Shown here one piece after another: positions 4,270 to 28,309 of a DNA stretch of 64,000 nt (position 1 is its first letter; each line of letters starts with the position of its first letter). This DNA comes from Caulobacterales bacterium (GTDB taxonomy: Bacteria; Pseudomonadota; Alphaproteobacteria; Caulobacterales; Aquidulcibacteraceae), in contig JBMOIB010000004.1 of NCBI GenBank assembly GCA_049317545.1, positions 5,565 through 69,564 on the forward strand, written 5' to 3'. The notes under the pieces were generated by a model. It made no database searches, had not been told where the DNA came from, and worked only from the letters and a program-made list of their open reading frames with translations. Made by a program: the position numbers and the translations under genes.

Positions 4270-4309
4270 GGCGCCTGTTAGCGCCCGCGCTGGCCGGCGG
4301 CAAGCGCCG

Positions 4310-4891
4310 TCATGAAGCGAGCCGCCACCCCGCGAATGCAGCGATCAAGGTCGCAGCGCCAAGGAGCGCGAATACGGCGGCGGCGCCGGCCCTGATGAGC
4401 TTGAGCGGCGCCCGCCTGAGAATGACGTCGCCCAGCAGTACGGCCGGCACATTGGCCGCCATCATGCCGATCGTCGTCCCGGCTGCGACGGCCAACACAG
4501 ATTGAAAGCGAGCGGCGAGCGCAACCGTAGCGATCTGCGTCTTGTCGCCCATTTCAACTAGGAAGAATGCGATCGCGGTCGCGAGGAACGCGCCGGCTCC
4601 GGCCGGCCCTTCCGGAACCCCCTCTTCCTTGTCCGGAATGAGCGCCCAGGCCGCCATGGCGAGAAAACCCAGTCCAAGCGCCAGGGTCAGAACCGGACCG
4701 TCGAGGAAGCTGGCGGCGATCTTGCCAACCAGCGCGGCGCCGGCATGGTTAACGAGCGTTGCGACGAAAATCCCCGCGATGATCGGCAATGGACGCCGAA
4801 ACCGCGCCGCGAGGAGAATGGCGAGCAGCTGGGTCTTGTCGCCGATTTCCGCCAAGGCGACGACCCCGGCGGAGGTGAGAAGCGCTTCCAT
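4310..4891 (-). CDS. UPF0016 / TMEM165-GDT1 family cation (Mn2+/Ca2+) transporter
   Basis: 193-aa polytopic protein with the two signature E-x-G-D-K-T motifs (AEIGDKTQLL and VEMGDKTQIA). Confidence 0.85.
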   Translation of the reverse strand: MEALLTSAGVVALAEIGDKTQLLAILLAARFRRPLPIIAGIFVATLVNHAGAALVGKIAASFLDGPVLTLALGLGFLAMAAWALIPDKEEGVPEGPAGAGAFLATAIAFFLVEMGDKTQIATVALAARFQSVLAVAAGTTIGMMAANVPAVLLGDVILRRAPLKLIRAGAAAVFALLGAATLIAAFAGWRLAS

Positions 4892-5060
4892 GTGCTAGCC
4901 GATCGGAAAAACCGGGGTGGTTTAACCCCATCCTAGCGATCCGCAAGCAAGAGGAGCCGATGGCGACCGCCCCGCACTCGACAACAGAACGTTGCAGGAC
5001 GATCGCACAAATTGCGCGCGCTTTCCGTCGCGCCGTCGCTACTGGCGTCGGCGGCCCACA

Positions 5061-5909
5061 GTGAGCGCCATCGCTCTGCATAATGACGCCGCGCGGCTCG
5101 AGGTTCGGCCTGAACTCGGCGGCGCTCTGACCGCGTTCGAATTCGCGGGCCGGCCAGTCTTTCGTCGGACGCCTCCTGGGGCGACGGATGCAGCAGAGAC
5201 CTCGGCCTTCGTATTGGCCCCATTTCCAAATCGCATCGCCCAGGCGCGCTTCGTCTTTGGCGGGCGCGTCATTGCGCTCGCGCCCGACCCTGCCGGCGGC
5301 GCGCATGCGCTGCATGGGGGCGCATGGCGACGACCATGGACCGTCGAACGCACTGGCCCCGCCGAACTACGCATGGCGACAAGCGATCTCGGCGATTGGC
5401 CATGGGCATGCCGCGTCGTCCAGGACGTCCGCCTCCGTCCAGACGGGCTCGATGTCGATGTCTCGCTGATCAACCTTGACGCCACGCCGATGCCCGCGGG
5501 GCTAGGCTGGCACCCGGCCTTCGCGGCCCGCGACGTTTGCCGCGTTCAGCTGGACTGCGGCATGTATTATCCGACATCGGATGACCTGCCGACCGCGCCG
5601 CGCGCGCTCGAGCCGCACTGGACCTTCGCGGACGGCGTCGACGGCGCAGCGCTGGCGCCGATCGATCATTGCCTGAGGGACTGGAGCGGCGCGGCCGAGC
5701 TGGTCTGGCCAGATCGGAAGATCCGGCTTACGGCGTGCGGGTGCCCCTTCCTGCAAGTCTATGCGCCCACGCATGGATCGTTCGTGTGCCTCGAACCGCA
5801 GACTTGCGCGCCCGACGCCTTCAACCGTGATGAAACCTTTGGCGCGGCGTCGCTTGCACCTGGCGAGGCGCTGGAGATTCAAGTGCGGATCGACGTCGCA
5901 GACCTGTAG
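5061..5909 (+). CDS. aldose 1-epimerase family protein
   Basis: Mutarotase-like beta-sandwich features (LHGGAWRRPW, GWHPAF, LEPQT). The start is placed at GTG 5061 (VSAIALHND...) because the upstream part of the track ORF is Arg-rich. The start is uncertain. Confidence 0.65.
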   Translation: MSAIALHNDAARLEVRPELGGALTAFEFAGRPVFRRTPPGATDAAETSAFVLAPFPNRIAQARFVFGGRVIALAPDPAGGAHALHGGAWRRPWTVERTGPAELRMATSDLGDWPWACRVVQDVRLRPDGLDVDVSLINLDATPMPAGLGWHPAFAARDVCRVQLDCGMYYPTSDDLPTAPRALEPHWTFADGVDGAALAPIDHCLRDWSGAAELVWPDRKIRLTACGCPFLQVYAPTHGSFVCLEPQTCAPDAFNRDETFGAASLAPGEALEIQVRIDVADL

Positions 5910-5918
5910 CGCAACCGC

Positions 5919-8042
<2,124 letters not shown>

Positions 8043-8239
8043 TGCGAGATCCTGGGCTAGCCTCTGATCATGCAGGCCAATTCGCGAGAGGAGCGTTAAT
8101 GGCCAGACGCGTTTGGGAACCGATCGGCGGCGGGATTCCTTGACAGGGTCCGGCTGGACCGCTTTTTGCGGAAGACGCTCTTCAAACCAGCGCCGCCTCG
8201 CGGTTTCGCGATTTGGCCCGGCGCAAGGGAGGTTGGTTG

Positions 8240-10108
8240 ATGAATGCGTCCCAAGACGGCGGTTGCACCCCGCCGACTAAGCACTCGGCCCTGATTGCCT
8301 GGGTCCAGGACATCGCCGCGCTCGCCAAACCCGATCGCATCCATTGGTGCGACGGCTCGGAAGCTGAATGGACGGCGCTGACGAATGAGCTCGTCGCCAA
8401 GGGCACGCTCAAGCGGCTCGATCCCGCCAAACGTCCGAATAGCTTCTACGCGGCGTCCGATCCCAGCGACGTGGCCCGCGTCGAAAGCCGCACCTTTATT
8501 TGCTCGCGCGACAAGAACGACGCCGGTCCGACGAACAATTGGGCTGACCCTGCGGAAATGCGCGCGACGCTCAACGGATTGTTCGACGGCTGCATGCGCG
8601 GCCGCACGATGTACGTCGTGCCCTTTTCCATGGGCCCGATCGGTTCGCCAATCAGCGCGCTCGGCGTCGAGATCACCGACAGCGCCTATGTCGCCGTGTC
8701 GATGCGAGTCATGACGCGCATGGGCAAAGACGCGCTCGATGCGCTCGGCGAAGACGGCGTGTTTGTGCCCGCGGTGCATACGCTCGGCGCGCCGCTCGCG
8801 CAGGGGCAGGCGGACGTGGCGTGGCCGTGCAACAAGGAAAAATACATCGTCCATTTCCCTGAAACCCGGGAAATCTGGTCATACGGTTCGGGCTATGGCG
8901 GCAACGCCTTGCTCGGGAAAAAATGCTTCGCGCTGCGCATCGCCAGCGTGATGGCGCGCGACGAAGGCTGGCTCGCCGAGCACATGCTGATCTTGAAGCT
9001 GACGCCGCCGCAGGGCGAGCCGCGCTTCGTTGCGGCCGCCTTCCCGAGCGCTTGCGGCAAGACCAACCTCGCCATGCTGCAGCCGACGATTCCGGGCTGG
9101 AAGGCCGAAACGATCGGCGACGACATCGCCTGGATGCGCTTCGGTCCCGACGGGCGGCTCTACGCCATCAACCCCGAGGCCGGCTTTTTCGGGGTAGCAC
9201 CGGGCACGGGCCGCGCGACCAACCAAAACGCGATCGCCACGCTGACCGAAAACACCATCTTCACCAATGTCGCCCTGACCGATGACGGCGACGTGTGGTG
9301 GGAGGGCCTGACGGACATTCCGCCGGCGCATCTGACGGATTGGCGCGGCCGCGCCTGGTCGCCAGAACTCGGCGAACCGGCCGCCCATCCTAATGCGCGC
9401 TTCGCCGCGCCGGCAGGCCAATGTCCGGCGATCGCGCCGGAATGGGAAGACCCGCGTGGCGTGCCGATCTCGGCGATCCTGTTTGGCGGGCGGCGTGCGT
9501 CGGCCGTACCCTTGGTCGTCGAGGCCTTCAACTGGACGCATGGCGTCTTTCTGGCGTCGAACGTAGCGTCCGAGGGCACCGCTGCGGCTGAAAACAAGAT
9601 CGGCGAGTTGCGCCGCGACCCGTTCGCGATGTTGCCATTCTGCGGCTACCACATGGGCGATTACTTCGCTCATTGGCTCAAAATGGGCCAATCAGCCGAC
9701 GCCTCGAAGCTTCCGAAGATTTTCTATGTCAACTGGTTCCGCAAGGACCGTTCGGGCCGCTACCTGTGGCCCGGCTATGGCGAGAATTCCCGCGTCCTGA
9801 AATGGATTGTCGAACGCCTTGATGGGCGCGCCGCAGCGGTGCAGACGCCGATCGGGCTGACGCCGACGCACGACAGTCTGGACGTGTCCGGCCTTCATCT
9901 CGCCGACGGCGCTCTCGGCGAACTGCTCGGGGTGGATCGCGCAACGTGGATCGAGGAAGCGGACCTGATACCGCCAGCCTATGACAAGTATGGCGACCGC
10001 CTCCCCAAGGCGCTTTGGGAAGAGCATCGCCGATTGGTCGATCGTCTGCGCTTCTGGGACCAGGGCGGCGATTATTCGGGATCTCAGGATGCCGCCGTTC
10101 GCGCCTAG
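8240..10108 (+). CDS. pckG: phosphoenolpyruvate carboxykinase (GTP)
   Basis: GTP-type PEPCK motifs: [17 protein letters not shown], the kinase-1a loop [20 protein letters not shown] and FGGRR. The start is at ATG 8240, preceded by AAGGGAGG. Confidence 0.92.
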
Positions 10109-10256: not shown

Positions 10257-10742
10257 ATGGATGCTTCGATGAACGAACAGAACGCCCTTGGCGCCGCCGA
10301 TCGCATCATCGAGCACGTCGCGACTATTGTTGCGGCCTACGCATCGACTACATCGCTCACCGAGGATGCTCTCGTCGGCGCTATTCGCCGTGTGCATTCC
10401 GAATTGGCGGTATTGGGTGGTCCAGCTGCAGCGGCCTCGACGCCGAGCGCCGGCGCAACGAGCCCAGCTGTGCCGGTCCGCAAATCTGTGACGCCGGATT
10501 ACATCGTCTGCCTGGAAGACGGTCAGCGCGTGAAGATGCTCAAGCGCTACATCATGACCCATTACAACCAGACCCCGGCGCAATACCGCGCCAAATGGGG
10601 CTTGCCGCCGGAATACCCGATGGTGGCGCCGAATTACGCCAAGCGCCGGTCGGAACTCGCCAAGGCCATCGGCCTCGGCACGAAGGCCAATTCCCCGAAA
10701 GAGCGCACCACCCGCGAACGCCGGGTCGGCGCGCGCGCCTGA
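10257..10742 (+). CDS. MucR/Ros family transcriptional regulator
   Basis: C-terminal Ros/MucR domain PDYIVCLEDGQRVKMLKRYIMTHYNQTPAQYRAKWGLPPEYPMVAPNYAKRRSELAKAIGLG. The second zinc-ligand position is Asp (CLED). Confidence 0.9.
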   Translation: MDASMNEQNALGAADRIIEHVATIVAAYASTTSLTEDALVGAIRRVHSELAVLGGPAAAASTPSAGATSPAVPVRKSVTPDYIVCLEDGQRVKMLKRYIMTHYNQTPAQYRAKWGLPPEYPMVAPNYAKRRSELAKAIGLGTKANSPKERTTRERRVGARA

Positions 10743-10757
10743 CGCATCTGCCGACGC

Positions 10758-12101
10758 CTAGCCGGAGACCAAGCTTGATGGCGCCGACGCACCGCCGATC
10801 GCAACGGCCAGCATCGGAAAGATAGGCGCAAAGGCGCCGCCGAACGCCGTGGTCTGCGCCCAGTCAGGAATGGACGCCGCGCGTTCGATGCGCATGCGCA
10901 CGCCTTTGGGCCGGCCGGACCGCGCCATCGACTGAATCGCCGGCAAGGCCGCGCCGCCGCCCACGGCGACGACCGTCAATGTAGCCCCGCCCGCATTGCG
11001 CACGGCTTCGGAGGCCGCCTGTAAGCCGTCAAGAAAGGCGTCTTCGATGGCGTCGAACGCCGCCGCCACGTCGGGGTCGCCCATGGCTTCGCGCGCGCTG
11101 ACGCGAACAACACGGTCGCCAACCCGGAAGGCGGCCTTGCCCGACGTCAGCATGTGTTCCTTCCCTGTCCGCACGTCGACCAGCAGATCGCGCCAAGCGC
11201 GCGCGCGCGCATCAACCCCGCGGAGGCGCGACCGCTCGATGACGAGGTTAAGGAGCGCGACATCGATGGCGTCGCCGGCTTGAGGGACCGTTCTGCGCGC
11301 TTCGCCAATCTCCCAGGCGTCGTCGCCTGCAAAACCAATCGCGCCGATGTCCGTCGTGCCGGCGCCGACATCGAGCACCAGCACCCCGGCCGAACGCGGG
11401 CCCGTAGACTCAAGACAGGCGACCGCCGCCGCCGCCGCTTCGAAAACGGCGCCTTCGACTTGGATATCGCCGCCGCGCGCGCCCGCCGCATCCAGCGCTG
11501 CGAGCGCCCTATCGATGCTCACGACTCCCGCGTCGAGGTTCGGCGCGAGGTCTTCCGCGATGGCGGCGGCGTCTCTGAACATGGCCGCCATCTCGCGATT
11601 GTGCCCGGCGGCGGCCGCACGGTTCCAATCGGGCCGCGTGTACCGCAGCGCAAAGCCGCCCGTGCGCGCCGAGCCAAGCGTGACGTCTTTGTCGATCGCG
11701 CGCGCAACGCCGCGCAGCAGATACGCCAGGAAAAGCACCAAAAGGTCGCGTTGGCGGAACTGGCGGGTCGGGTCGATGCCTGGCGGCAGGAGAGTCCGAA
11801 TGGACCGCGAGAGGTCGCGGGCGCCGAGCAGCGTCTTGAAGGAGCGCAGCGTTTCGCGGTTGGCGGGAAGTCCCGCCGCGACGCGTTGCGCCGCTACGCC
11901 GAGAAGCACGCGCTTCTCATCGGGATCGACAACGAGAAGACCGGGCAAAAGAAAGGGATTGGCCGTGTCCGAAATGATTAATGGCCGGACGGCGCGCGGG
12001 TCGCGTTCATCCCTGTGCGCCGCCGCCGCCTTGCTGTTGGCGGTGCCGAAGTCGACGCAGACCGTCCAATCCGATCCGCCGCGGCCCTGAGCGCCGGTCA
12101 T
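10758..12101 (-). CDS. Hsp70-like (actin-fold/ASKHA) ATPase, nucleotide-binding domain only
   Basis: Phosphate-1 VDFGTANS, phosphate-2 VLDVGAGTTDIG and adenosine motif VVAVGGGAALPAI. There is no substrate-binding domain, and the C-terminus is hydrophobic (FAPIFPMLAVAIGGA). The start is at ATG 12101, which overlaps the upstream stop (ATGA). The 89 upstream codons in the track ORF are Arg-rich. Confidence 0.8.
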   Translation of the reverse strand: MTGAQGRGGSDWTVCVDFGTANSKAAAAHRDERDPRAVRPLIISDTANPFLLPGLLVVDPDEKRVLLGVAAQRVAAGLPANRETLRSFKTLLGARDLSRSIRTLLPPGIDPTRQFRQRDLLVLFLAYLLRGVARAIDKDVTLGSARTGGFALRYTRPDWNRAAAAGHNREMAAMFRDAAAIAEDLAPNLDAGVVSIDRALAALDAAGARGGDIQVEGAVFEAAAAAVACLESTGPRSAGVLVLDVGAGTTDIGAIGFAGDDAWEIGEARRTVPQAGDAIDVALLNLVIERSRLRGVDARARAWRDLLVDVRTGKEHMLTSGKAAFRVGDRVVRVSAREAMGDPDVAAAFDAIEDAFLDGLQAASEAVRNAGGATLTVVAVGGGAALPAIQSMARSGRPKGVRMRIERAASIPDWAQTTAFGGAFAPIFPMLAVAIGGASAPSSLVSG

Positions 12102-12568
12102 CGCGGACGCTTTCGGGACCGCGCCTCGCGGACCGGTCGCGCCGCCGCTACGTCGGCGCGGGCGAGAACCATCTCGTCCTCGCCGAGGCCGCGCACGACA
12201 AAGGGCGTCGAAACCAAAACTGGATCGCCGGGCGCGACGTCGAATCCGTCCACGACGGTATGAAGCGCGGGATCGTAGGCGGCCTCGCCGCATGCTCCCA
12301 TGCGCAGGCGCCGCAGTGCTGCAACCTGTTCGAGATCCTGCAGCGCGAGCGCCGCGCGATCGAGGCACGCCGACATGCGCTTTTGCGCTGCGTTCGGGCG
12401 TTTGCCCGCCTCCTGGCTGCGCTCGACGGCGGCGAGGGCCTTAACCAGATCGCGCTCGAGAACGGCGGTTTCTCGCCAGGCGCGCGCCAAGAAGGCGTCG
12501 GCCTCCGCCCAGGCCGCGCGCTCCAAGGCCTCGGCCACTACGTCAGACGATCGACTGGCGCGGGTCAT
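12098..12568 (-). CDS. GrpE-like putative nucleotide exchange factor
   Basis: 156 aa. A helical N-terminal half is followed by GEAAYDPALHTVVDGFDVAPGDPVLVSTPFVVRGLGEDEMVLARADVAA. This resembles the GrpE C-terminus ([22 protein letters not shown]...RAAMVTVAK in E. coli, from memory). The stop overlaps the Hsp70-like start. Confidence 0.55.
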   Translation of the reverse strand: MTRASRSSDVVAEALERAAWAEADAFLARAWRETAVLERDLVKALAAVERSQEAGKRPNAAQKRMSACLDRAALALQDLEQVAALRRLRMGACGEAAYDPALHTVVDGFDVAPGDPVLVSTPFVVRGLGEDEMVLARADVAAARPVREARSRKRPR

Positions 12569-12572
12569 GCAG

Positions 12573-12609
12573 GCGCCCTCAATGCGCCCAAAGGTGGGCT
12601 TGAGGGCGC
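12573..12609. promoter_or_regulatory. nested inverted repeat in the divergent promoter region
   Basis: GCGCCCTCAA-tgc-GCCCA-aagg-TGGGC-t-TTGAGGGCGC: a 10-bp outer and a 5-bp inner perfect dyad, 5 nt from the GrpE-like start codon. Confidence 0.5.
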
Positions 12610-12682
12610 ATCCGCTCGCGTGGAACGGACGTTGGATTGTCGTTCGTCGCTGGGCTGCATAAAAGCGAACTCGCACGCAAGG

Positions 12683-13717
12683 ATGCGCCAATTGGCGGAT
12701 GAGACCAAGTCTTCACGCAATTTGCGCGCCAAATCGGGCGGGCGCGAGCCGGCGCGTGGCCGCAGTCGCGCCCGTTCGCCCATCGCACTGGTTCTAGCCG
12801 GCGCAGGCCTCGGCGCGGCGGCTGGCGCAATTGCGTCAACCAACCCGATCGTCGCCGCACTTGCGGGCAAGGCTATCTGGATCGGTGCGGGAGCTGGCGT
12901 CGGCGGCGCCATCGGCGCCCTTGCAGCGTGGTGGAGCGATCCCGTTCGGGCGCGCATCCGCCGCCGCGACGAGATCGCCGCGGACGCCACGCATCAGCTG
13001 AACCTGCCGTTTGCCGCGACCACTGATCTGCGCGCCCTGGCCCCCGACCGCCGTACGCCGATCGGTTTGCTGCTCGACCGTCCGTCCTCGCCGTTCGCGA
13101 CAGGTGTGCGCGACGTGCTTTTCGCGCTCGATCGGGCCCTCGACGCCTATTTCGGCGGTCGCATCGTGCTGGTTGCGGGGCCACATGCCGGCGTTGGCGC
13201 CACCACCCTCGCCGCCAGTCTCGCGATCGCGGCGGCCGCGGAGGGACGGCGCGTTCTGCTCATCGACGCCGATCTTCGAGGGCGTGGCGCCACTTTGCTG
13301 CTGCGCGCGAGCGCACAGGCCGGCATTCACGAAGTCGCAGTCGGCGCGGCGCCGCTCGCGGCGGCGATTGCCCGAGCGGACGCCTATGGCTTCGACGTCG
13401 CGACGGCCGGCCCATCCCGGTCGGGCGGACAGGAGCTCTATTCGTCGGTGATGTGGAGCCAGACACTGGCGCAGGCGCGCCTTGCCTATGATCTCGTGAT
13501 CATCGACGCGCCGCCGGCGCTCGAATCTGTCGAGGCGAGGATGCTCGCGCGGACGGTCGACGCGACCCTGATTGCGGGCAGGCGTGCGAAAACGCGCCGT
13601 CTTGCGGCGCAGGCGGCCAGCGCCATTCTCAGCCGCCCTGACGGATCGGCCCCGATCGCCGCGGCCGTCATGACGGATGCGCCGCCGCCGAAGTCCAAGC
13701 CCCGGCGACGGGGTTAG
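12683..13717 (+). CDS. membrane-anchored BY-kinase/MinD-like P-loop protein with degenerate Walker A
   Basis: Basic N-terminus, Gly/Ala-rich TM region (LVLAGAGLGAAAGAI...WIGAGAGVGGAIGALAAWW), Walker A' VLLIDADLRG and Walker B LVIIDAPP. Walker A reads GPHAGVGATT, with Ala where the Lys is expected. There is no C-terminal Tyr cluster. The start is at ATG 12683. Confidence 0.7.
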   Translation: MRQLADETKSSRNLRAKSGGREPARGRSRARSPIALVLAGAGLGAAAGAIASTNPIVAALAGKAIWIGAGAGVGGAIGALAAWWSDPVRARIRRRDEIAADATHQLNLPFAATTDLRALAPDRRTPIGLLLDRPSSPFATGVRDVLFALDRALDAYFGGRIVLVAGPHAGVGATTLAASLAIAAAAEGRRVLLIDADLRGRGATLLLRASAQAGIHEVAVGAAPLAAAIARADAYGFDVATAGPSRSGGQELYSSVMWSQTLAQARLAYDLVIIDAPPALESVEARMLARTVDATLIAGRRAKTRRLAAQAASAILSRPDGSAPIAAAVMTDAPPPKSKPRRRG

Positions 13718-13721
13718 GGCG

Positions 13722-14075
13722 TCACATCTTCACTTCGTAATCGGTGCGCTTCTTGCCTGCGGATTCGAGCGCCCGCAGCCAACGCGGGGTTGGGCCGCGT
13801 CCAGCCCATTCTTCGCCCTTCGGGCCGCGATACTTGACCGGGAGCTTCTTGCCGGCGTCGGCGCGCTGACGGCGGCGGCGCTCGCCGCCCATGAGGCCCT
13901 CGACGGTGAGGCCGAGCTCGGCGGCGCGCTCGCGCATTTCCTCGATAAGGGCCTGCTTGGCTTCGCCGAGTTTGGCTTCGCGCACACGTTCGGCTTCCGC
14001 GATCAAACTGGTGAGATCAGCGGGAGAAAGATGGTCGATAGCGGGTAGATTTGACTTTTCCGGCTTCTTCGTCAT
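13722..14075 (-). CDS. H-NS family nucleoid-associated protein
   Basis: Coiled-coil N-terminal half and a C-terminal DNA-binding motif KYRGPKGEEWAGRGPTPRWL. ATG 14075 is preferred, but GTG 14087 is possible. Confidence 0.85.
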   Translation of the reverse strand: MTKKPEKSNLPAIDHLSPADLTSLIAEAERVREAKLGEAKQALIEEMRERAAELGLTVEGLMGGERRRRQRADAGKKLPVKYRGPKGEEWAGRGPTPRWLRALESAGKKRTDYEVKM

Positions 14076-14149
14076 CGCAATTTGCACCTATCCAAAAACC
14101 ACCCAGGAGGATGCTTACATGAGCGCTTCGCGACTAAGATTCAATGAAT

Positions 14150-27250: not shown

Positions 27251-28309
<1,059 letters not shown>

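Follow-up and report, generated by a model that had tools for sequence, protein, structure and literature searches.

A conserved gene trio from a Caulobacterales genome: an Hsp70-type nucleotide-binding domain, a GrpE-like protein, and a membrane-anchored pseudo-kinase with a possible role in exopolysaccharide control

Introduction

What does an Hsp70-like protein do when it has kept its nucleotide-binding domain (NBD) and lacks the domain that holds substrates, and which proteins does it work with? Bacteria contain many Hsp70 paralogs without a substrate-binding domain (SBD), the functions of which are unknown (PMC13580251). The question is raised by three neighboring genes in a 64,000-nucleotide stretch (the window) of a Caulobacterales genome (assembly GCA_049317545.1, contig JBMOIB010000004.1, positions 5,565 to 69,564). 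Gene A (10758 to 12101, minus strand) codes for 447 amino acids (aa); gene B (12098 to 12568, minus strand), directly upstream, codes for 156 aa; and gene C (12683 to 13717, plus strand), divergent from both, codes for 344 aa. An earlier reading of this DNA, made from the letters without database searches (the sequence-only reading), had taken them for a self-contained, membrane-associated system of ATPase, exchange factor, and P-loop scaffold, with polymer export control, positioning, or stress and conflict as its candidate roles.

Here, we confirm most of this reading and assign the three products by homology: A is an Hsp70-type NBD, B a divergent GrpE-like protein, and C a membrane-anchored pseudo-enzyme with the fold of bacterial tyrosine kinases (BY-kinases). 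Judging from the genomic context in which the trio is found, we propose, at about an even chance of being right, that it is a nucleotide-switch module which acts together with a membrane pseudo-kinase to control exopolysaccharide (EPS) assembly or export. The searchable literature contains no description of the trio, nor of GrpE-like partners of SBD-less Hsp70s, and none of the atypical Hsp70s (YegD, StkA, SglK) is described there with a dedicated GrpE-like partner and a pseudo-BY-kinase.

Gene A codes for an Hsp70-type nucleotide-binding domain

Gene A codes for a complete Hsp70-type NBD, with neither the interdomain linker nor the SBD (beta-basket and lid). In Pfam and NCBIfam it gave only subthreshold matches to MreB, HSP70, FtsA, and MamK (15.4 against a cutoff of 20.6 for the Pfam HSP70 model, and far under the cutoffs of the NCBIfam DnaK models). 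A profile built from 30 family members, when searched against the PDB, matched exclusively the NBDs of Hsp70, BiP, and Hsc70 (E ~5e-14). The AlphaFold2 (AF2) model of A (predicted local distance difference test [pLDDT], 89; predicted template modeling score [pTM], 0.87) was compared to the PDB with Foldseek, and the best 50 matches were all Hsp70 NBDs, at E ~4e-14 and with ~470 aligned columns that spanned the whole protein.

The nucleotide motifs on which the sequence-only reading had based its assignment were all found in place. The phosphate-1 motif VDFGTANS (aa 16 to 23; 12033 to 12056, minus strand, as are the other features of A) contains D17 and T20, and the motif FKTLLG (aa 88 to 93; 11823 to 11840) contains K89, which from the similarity of the motif to AKRLIG of DnaK is likely the equivalent of the catalytic Lys70. 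The segment from FEAAAAA, with E221, to VLDVGAGTTD (aa 242 to 251), with D244, T249, and D251, lies at 11349 to 11444; hhalign against Escherichia coli DnaK (E 1e-5, DnaK residues 164 to 245) aligned these four residues to E171, D194, T199, and D201. D17, T20, K89, E221, D244, T249, and D251 are invariant across the 30 members of the family, as are G381 to G383 of the adenosine motif VVAVGGGAALPAI (aa 377 to 389; 10935 to 10973).

The Ala/Gly-rich C terminus had been read as a hydrophobic tail, an interpretation that we had to abandon. It is the last helix of the NBD (aa 424 to 439 in the AF2 model), packed in the fold (block pLDDT of 95 at residues 431 to 440) and not a membrane anchor. The segment FPMLAVAIGGASAP (aa 428 to 441; 10779 to 10820), which presumably corresponds to the Hsp70 NBD end motif PDEAVAxGAA, contains the family invariants G436, G437, A438, and P441 and is of moderate hydropathy only. 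The chain ends at aa 447, immediately after this helix, leaving no peptide-binding domain, as had been claimed.

Among other Hsp70 relatives of this kind, YegD is also NBD-only and unrelated to heat shock (PMC13580251). An orthology of A with YegD was considered and rejected, with just a 23-column local match to the E. coli protein. The "DnaK derivates" StkA (540 aa) and SglK of Myxococcus xanthus are likewise non-heat-shock Hsp70 relatives, and both are longer than A.

Gene B belongs to a GrpE-like family

The start codon of A overlaps the stop codon of B by 4 nucleotides (cgATGAcc on the minus strand), as the sequence-only reading had noted, and by this ATGA overlap B is translationally coupled to A. 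Directly upstream of A homologs there is a small conserved protein family, usually with the same 4-nucleotide overlap. We assembled the B family from these genes and then extended it by profile searches, since a word-indexed homolog search with B itself returned four close relatives only (an identical copy of B is also recorded from a Caulobacterales metagenome-assembled genome [MAG]). The family consensus reads ...AAWAEADxALAxAL...QxLxRAARKRGLxRxGxxGxxxxFDPxxHEL...PxxVRIxARGVARGxEVLxKARV. Its size is ~196 clusters in a 5.8-billion-protein set and 155 representatives in a full-library search, all unnamed and free of Pfam domains, and the window B matches the family hidden Markov model (HMM) at E 2e-25.

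The resemblance of B to the beta-domain of GrpE, claimed beforehand, is borne out by the family profile and not by the single sequence; at that level, sequence comparison gives good support for homology between the B family and the C-terminal half of GrpE. The best PDB match of the B profile was GrpE of Thermus thermophilus (3a6m, E 0.04), on the beta-domain, and GrpE (PF01025) was the Pfam family matched by most B members, yet only 4 of 39 reached E <= 10 (best, 0.043). With hhalign, the match of the B profile to the single E. coli GrpE sequence was weak (E 0.016, probability 3%). Against an alignment of 11 GrpE sequences (plasmid-borne grpE genes plus an E. coli GrpE sequence, 99.5% identical to E. 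coli records) the B family scored E 1.7e-4, and the wider B superfamily reached 92.5% probability and E 4.8e-7 over 82 columns, equivalent to E. coli GrpE 115 to 197, that is, the last bundle helix and the whole beta-domain. In 40 column shuffles of the GrpE alignment per query, the maximum scores were 15.9 and 11.6, compared to 34.1 and 49.9 for the real alignments. Conversely, when the 17,110 six-frame open reading frame (ORF) fragments from the collected loci were searched with a plain GrpE HMM, B-family ORFs took ranks 1 to 9.

In the window B, the GrpE-homologous region lies at 12119 to 12379 (minus strand) and includes AAYDPALH (aa 96 to 103), which corresponds to FDPnxHeA of GrpE, and MVLARADVAA (aa 133 to 142), which corresponds to vlRpAmVxV. 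Closer to the N terminus there is a helix motif, AAWAEADxxLAxAW (12476 to 12517, minus strand; W20, A23, and D24 invariant), that is specific to the family: it is common to B and to the C-terminal domain of PDC-M61A (see below) and is not present in GrpE. The AF2 model of B (pLDDT 76) consists of two helices (7 to 54 and 59 to 89) followed by six short strands, the order of elements in GrpE. The proposal that the N-terminal half resembles the GrpE stalk thus holds for its helical structure, but homology to the stalk could not be demonstrated.

Two variants within the family were also observed. In the window B, and in P0042, P0044, and the B of L007, which are closest to it, the helical region contains ~30 inserted aa (alignment columns ~126 to 160) that other members do not have. 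The 192-aa protein P0224 has an N-terminal fragment resembling N6-adenine methyltransferases (NPPY) in front of a B-family sequence of which only the C-terminal half is present; this may be either a chimera of gene calling or assembly or a real fusion.

Compared to DnaK and GrpE, the A-B pair keeps the Hsp70 NBD fold with its catalytic residues, the last bundle helix and beta-domain of GrpE with the FDPxxH and R/K-xA-x-V motifs, the succession of a long helix, a helix, and a small beta-domain, and the arrangement in which the exchange-factor gene immediately precedes the ATPase gene and is coupled to it. However, A has no linker, SBD, or lid and no J-protein nearby; B is shorter (~140 to 156 aa versus ~180 to 210 aa), falls under the Pfam GrpE threshold, and has its own AAWxEAD helix motif; and the context of the trio is EPS and a pseudo-kinase instead of heat shock (hrcA/dnaJ). 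By analogy with GrpE, we infer that B acts as an exchange factor, a role to which its coupling with A lends indirect support only.

Gene C codes for a putative membrane-anchored pseudo-kinase

From its sequence, C is predicted to be a membrane-anchored protein of the BY-kinase fold that is catalytically disabled, in agreement with what had been suggested for this divergent gene, the start of which is separated from that of B by 114 nucleotides. Its best NCBIfam families were the Etk, EpsG, and eps_fam tyrosine autokinases (each under its curated cutoff), and its best PDB sequence matches were BceF, CapA/CapB, Etk, Wzc, and VpsO, with E values from 6e-17 to 1e-13. ParA and MinD matched at E values of at least 1e-9, that is, 5 to 8 orders of magnitude weaker. 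A Kyte-Doolittle scan and the N termini of the family indicated two hydrophobic, transmembrane-like segments (aa 32 to 53 and 64 to 84; 12776 to 12934, plus strand, as are the other features of C). The segments are ~10 residues apart, with no large periplasmic polysaccharide copolymerase (PCP) domain between them, and C has no Pfam match to Wzz/GNVR, unlike the neighboring kinases of ~700 aa.

In the degenerate Walker A motif of C, GPHAGVGATT (13178 to 13207), aligned to GPTPGIGKS of BceF, the lysine of GK[ST] is replaced by alanine. None of the 40 C-family members has this lysine, with A, G, S, or T in its place, and neither lysine of the deviant Walker A motif of ParA and MinD (KGGxxK[ST]) is present in the P-loop of C. 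The Walker A'-like motif VLLIDADLRGRG (13253 to 13288; VLLIDADLR conserved) and the Walker B-like motif DLVIIDAPP (13490 to 13516) are kept, according to the family and PDB alignments. The last 30 aa contain no tyrosine in the window C and 0 to 2 across the C family, versus 3 to 6 in full-length kinases. The full-length Wzz-GNVR kinases (~700 aa) of the same loci have the Walker A sequence EGKTT and a tyrosine-rich tail. C is most similar to the BY-kinases (Wzc/Etk, CapA-CapB, BceF, VpsO) in its cytoplasmic domain, where Walker A', Walker B, and the juxtamembrane SPFAxxFRD are maintained, and in being encoded in EPS loci, and differs from them in lacking the Walker A lysine (40 of 40), the C-terminal tyrosine cluster, and the large periplasmic PCP (Wzz/GNVR) domain.

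The reading frame of C is open for 702 nucleotides upstream of its start, giving an ORF of 578 aa (11981 to 13717, plus strand) antisense to B and part of A. Such long open frames are typical of DNA with ~68% GC, and this one deceived a simple longest-ORF gene caller, so that annotation pipelines could mis-start C; genes in the collected loci were called with a codon log-odds caller.

Synteny and distribution of the trio

We collected 81 distinct loci with A homologs, the window being one and the other 80 coming from genomes; Terricaulis, Vitreimonas, Hyphomonadaceae, and Caulobacterales MAGs contributed most of them. B is adjacent to A in 40 of them, a short C is adjacent in 40, and the full trio is present in 37, in loci where the identity of A goes down to ~36%. 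The module is thus conserved well beyond close relatives and in two gene arrangements, as expected of the three-gene module that had been proposed. The 4-nucleotide start/stop overlap was found in nearly all of the 40 B-bearing loci. Each of the three genes comes from a conserved family with invariant motifs, and their joint occurrence in 37 independent loci is more than chance.

The position of C relative to A takes three forms: convergent downstream, divergent upstream, or codirectional upstream without B (L010 and L012). The commonest order is a BBP2_2 barrel resembling EpsL, then B and A, followed by C on the opposite strand and a phosphoglycosyl transferase. The divergent orientation of C, which the sequence-only reading had singled out, characterizes the clade of the window (L007 and L099 to L101, with A 51 to 55% identical) and not the usual order, in which C is convergent. 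Near the trio there are glycosyltransferases, a full Wzc-like kinase (in most loci), a Poly_export/SLBB protein, and sugar-modifying enzymes, and of the 40 loci with an adjacent C, 33 have EPS genes no more than 8 kb away. The module is therefore usually embedded in EPS loci beside an intact Wzc-like kinase and cannot be called self-contained. A gene coding for a calcineurin-like metallophosphoesterase (L018, 14335 to 15159; cluster 20, ~14 loci) is a conserved neighbor of the Wza-like and Wzc-like genes in these EPS loci and might be a phosphatase partner of the intact BY-kinase.

In a neighbor-joining distance tree, the A proteins associated with B and C formed one clade, with the basal L053 and L063 adjoining full-length BY-kinases. 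A large sister clade consists of A-like NBD-only proteins (31 to 35% identical) encoded directly downstream of a pair of response regulator and histidine kinase, with no B and no C (for example, L055 at 6577 to 9356, L056, L059 to L062, L065, L067, L073, L076, L080, L081, and L084 to L086), which suggests a link to two-component signaling. Other A paralogs without B or a short C (L053 at 5447 to 9371, L063 at 4275 to 7939, L048, L045, and L074) adjoin full-length Wzc-like BY-kinases, phosphoglycosyl transferases, BBP2_2 barrels, or Poly_export genes, so the link between this NBD family and EPS loci extends beyond the trio. Two genomes, CP096134.1 (L028 and L086) and CAYOPM010000003.1 (L011 and L065), contain two A paralogs each, one in the B-A-C/EPS context and one in the two-component context.

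Relation to the phage defense candidate PDC-M61

No named and characterized system fits the trio, in line with the earlier claim; the nearest is PDC-M61, an unpublished and unvalidated phage defense candidate of PADLOC (PMC11811056) that matches only the A-B pair, and distantly. As the PDC-x systems are unpublished candidates, the name carries no mechanism. The PADLOC screen was positive for A in part: A matched PDC-M61B at E 8e-44 through aa 10 to 439, covering only profile positions 121 to 557 of 588, while a true M61B member (in L005) spans positions 1 to 567 at E 7e-91. B and C had no meaningful PADLOC match, B having none to the ~485-position PDC-M61A model.

The connection on the B side came from the family. 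An exhaustive search of 1.8 billion proteins with the B profile retrieved proteins of 350 to 490 aa with a C-terminal B domain (E 1e-9 to 1e-4), several of which are PDC-M61A. This C-terminal B-like (GrpE-like) domain of ~110 aa was observed in the PDC-M61A of L005 (4530 to 5972) and in proteins P0263, P0276, P0290, P0296, and P0309, and the ~350-aa N-terminal part of PDC-M61A had no Pfam match. In L005, a 481-aa M61A, the C terminus of which aligns to the beta-domain of B, is followed by a 564-aa M61B, and the pair is located between integrases, AlpA, and an Eco57I-type methyltransferase. PDC-M61 thus appears to combine a protein that carries a GrpE domain with one that is Hsp70-like, and the B-A pair of the window is a minimal relative of this cassette. 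The two are homologous and follow the same two-gene logic, a protein with a GrpE-like C-terminal domain and then an Hsp70-like one. Nevertheless, M61A has the additional N-terminal domain of ~350 aa and M61B an N-terminal extension of ~120 aa, there is no BY-kinase-like third gene, and the context is that of a mobile island.

Proposed mechanism

If A and B behave as their relatives do, B, probably dimeric like GrpE, would bind ADP-bound A, and its beta-domain would be wedged between lobes IB and IIB of A, accelerating the release of ADP, so that B would set the rate at which A cycles between its ATP and ADP conformations. The opening of ADP-bound DnaK by GrpE is summarized in PMC10825016. Since A has no SBD, it cannot hold on to unfolded peptides, and its nucleotide state would probably serve to gate a contact with another protein, most likely the cytoplasmic domain of C. 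Being predicted to be unable to autophosphorylate, C could not run the oligomer cycle of phosphorylation and dephosphorylation of Wzc-type kinases; the A/B ATPase may supply it with an energy-dependent cycle or checkpoint instead. C would then modulate the coencoded Wzc-like, Wza-like, and EpsL-like machinery, which in the genome of the window would be encoded elsewhere. There are precedents on both sides: in M. xanthus, EPS is under the control of two Hsp70-like proteins, StkA and SglK, of which SglK can substitute for E. coli DnaK (PMC4319316, PMC8265645), and the BY-kinase PtkA phosphorylates DnaK (PMC4835898). These make a link of an Hsp70-like protein to EPS and BY-kinases plausible.

Several observations weigh against this proposal. 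As a single sequence, the window B had no Pfam or NCBIfam match at E <= 1 and no PADLOC match, and it was not detected by the plain GrpE HMM, so that its homology is seen through the family alone. The beta-domain of its model is of low confidence (block pLDDT of ~67 to 81 for aa 81 to 120 and 51 to 61 for aa 121 to 156), and Foldseek with the monomer model, in which the stalk is folded back on itself, gave no significant match, with GrpE 3a6m second at E 0.6 (TM-score ~0.28; root mean square deviation, 14.9). The GrpE match is confined to the C-terminal half, and the stalk of B is best described as analogous, with no demonstrable homology. With regard to the context, tblastn with BBP2_2, phosphoglycosyl transferase, Poly_export, Wzc-like, and other queries found no EPS genes in the window, and in the clade of the window the cassette occupies a fixed site between the H-NS-like and MucR/PEPCK genes (PEPCK, phosphoenolpyruvate carboxykinase), outside EPS loci. 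There are also many A paralogs without B and C, from which it follows that A-type NBDs can function without them. Finally, the idea that A and B replace the lost phospho-cycle of the pseudo-kinase is speculation.

Alternative explanations

We considered four other explanations, all of them less likely than a role with the pseudo-kinase in EPS assembly or export. A and B could be a specialized Hsp70-like regulator, as StkA and SglK are, whose client is not C but an EPS signaling protein or enzyme, with C adjacent by virtue of a shared EPS regulon. Such a client is improbable in our estimation, even though the M. xanthus Hsp70-like proteins regulate EPS genetically with no known BY-kinase partner (PMC4319316), the sister clade of A follows response regulator and histidine kinase pairs with no B or C, and some A paralogs of EPS loci have no short C beside them (L045, L048, and L074). 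C tracks A more closely than does any other EPS gene, being adjacent in 40 loci; it still stands beside A outside EPS loci (the window, L007, L099, L012, L019, and L036), and the adjacency is kept though its position relative to A varies by lineage. That the trio would serve in anti-phage defense or conflict, as PDC-M61 in reduced form, is suggested by the match of A to PDC-M61B, by the retrieval of the PDC-M61A C-terminal domain with the B-family profile, and by the integrases, AlpA, and Eco57I-type methyltransferase around the genuine pair in L005. However, PDC-M61 is itself unvalidated, the window proteins have neither the M61A N-terminal domain nor the M61B extension, PADLOC recognizes nothing meaningful in B or C, and in the neighbor-joining tree PDC-M61B branches outside all of the A proteins. 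In addition, across many genera the trio has fixed places in the chromosome and conserved neighbors (housekeeping or EPS genes) and does not lie in variable islands, and we therefore regard a defense function as unlikely.

Even less probable, and in our view very unlikely, is that A serves the housekeeping DnaK, in the manner of Hsp110, as an NBD partner or an exchange factor, with B as an accessory. A role of this type has been proposed for SBD-less "DnaK derivates" and was raised in a 2026 review for bacterial NBD-only paralogs such as YegD (PMC13580251). However, A retains all the catalytic residues, its own coupled GrpE-like partner marks it as the target of exchange and not the exchanger, it is not close to YegD, and it is C and EPS genes, rather than dnaK, that are conserved as its partners. 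A cytoskeletal or positioning system, in which A would form filaments like MreB, ParM, or FtsA and C would be an ATPase of the ParA/MinD type, is hardly credible. The weak Pfam and NCBIfam matches of A do include MreB, FtsA, and MamK, and C matches the CbiA, ParA, and MinD models; but all the PDB profile matches of A and the best 50 of its structure search are Hsp70s, C is far closer to the BY-kinases and has neither of the lysines expected in a deviant Walker A, and a GrpE-like partner would make no sense for an actin-like filament. Both the MreB/FtsA/ParM and the ParA/MinD interpretations were rejected on this structural and P-loop evidence. Among the roles listed by the sequence-only reading, polymer export control is thus the one favored by the EPS context, while positioning and conflict are disfavored.

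Surroundings of the trio in the window

The canonical dnaK and grpE genes and J-domain genes were not detectable within the window, as had been stated; a simple scan for the HPD motif of J-domains was also negative there, and no J-protein was found among the annotated conserved neighbors of A. The only other DnaK-like tblastn match in the window was an ORF of 348 aa (27251 to 28297, minus strand; E 9e-8, DnaK residues 5 to 240), the size and similarity of which suggest MreB.

The trio is flanked on one side by PEPCK (8213 to 10108) and a Ros/MucR gene (10257 to 10742, plus strand) and on the other by an H-NS-like gene (13722 to 14087, minus strand), followed by an alcohol dehydrogenase and a major facilitator superfamily transporter. 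MucR/Ros proteins are regulators of EPS genes in rhizobia. The two regulatory neighbors recur in the relatives of the window: MucR is present in all four of L007, L099, L100, and L101, and the H-NS-like gene in those of them whose sequence reaches that far. The promoters of B-A and C are both presumed to lie in the divergent intergenic region of 114 nucleotides (12569 to 12682), in which we found no sigma-70 consensus; promoter and terminator scans were uninformative.

Implications

GrpE-type domains are more widespread than thought, considering the ~150 to 200 B clusters without Pfam annotation and the C terminus of PDC-M61A, and in the latter case the GrpE-like domain offers a first mechanistic handle on the PDC-M61 candidate. 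The presence of a paralog with a dead Walker A and no tyrosine cluster beside an intact Wzc-like kinase constitutes a natural experiment on the scaffold role of these kinases apart from phosphorylation. For the SBD-less Hsp70s, the module provides one paralog with defined partners (an unannotated GrpE-like factor and a pseudo-BY-kinase) and with a likely process, EPS assembly or export, which makes the question of their function experimentally approachable.

A bolder version of our proposal, which we consider rather doubtful, is that an SBD-less Hsp70 with its own GrpE-like factor replaced tyrosine autophosphorylation as the energy cycle of a BY-kinase-derived pseudo-enzyme. ATP hydrolysis on A and B-catalyzed release of ADP would then drive the assembly and disassembly, or the gating, of C and in this way time the polymerization and export of the polysaccharide, and the same cassette would have been recruited independently for phage defense in PDC-M61. 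If this were true, the cassette would be a general and portable molecular switch derived from a chaperone, and not a machine for protein folding.

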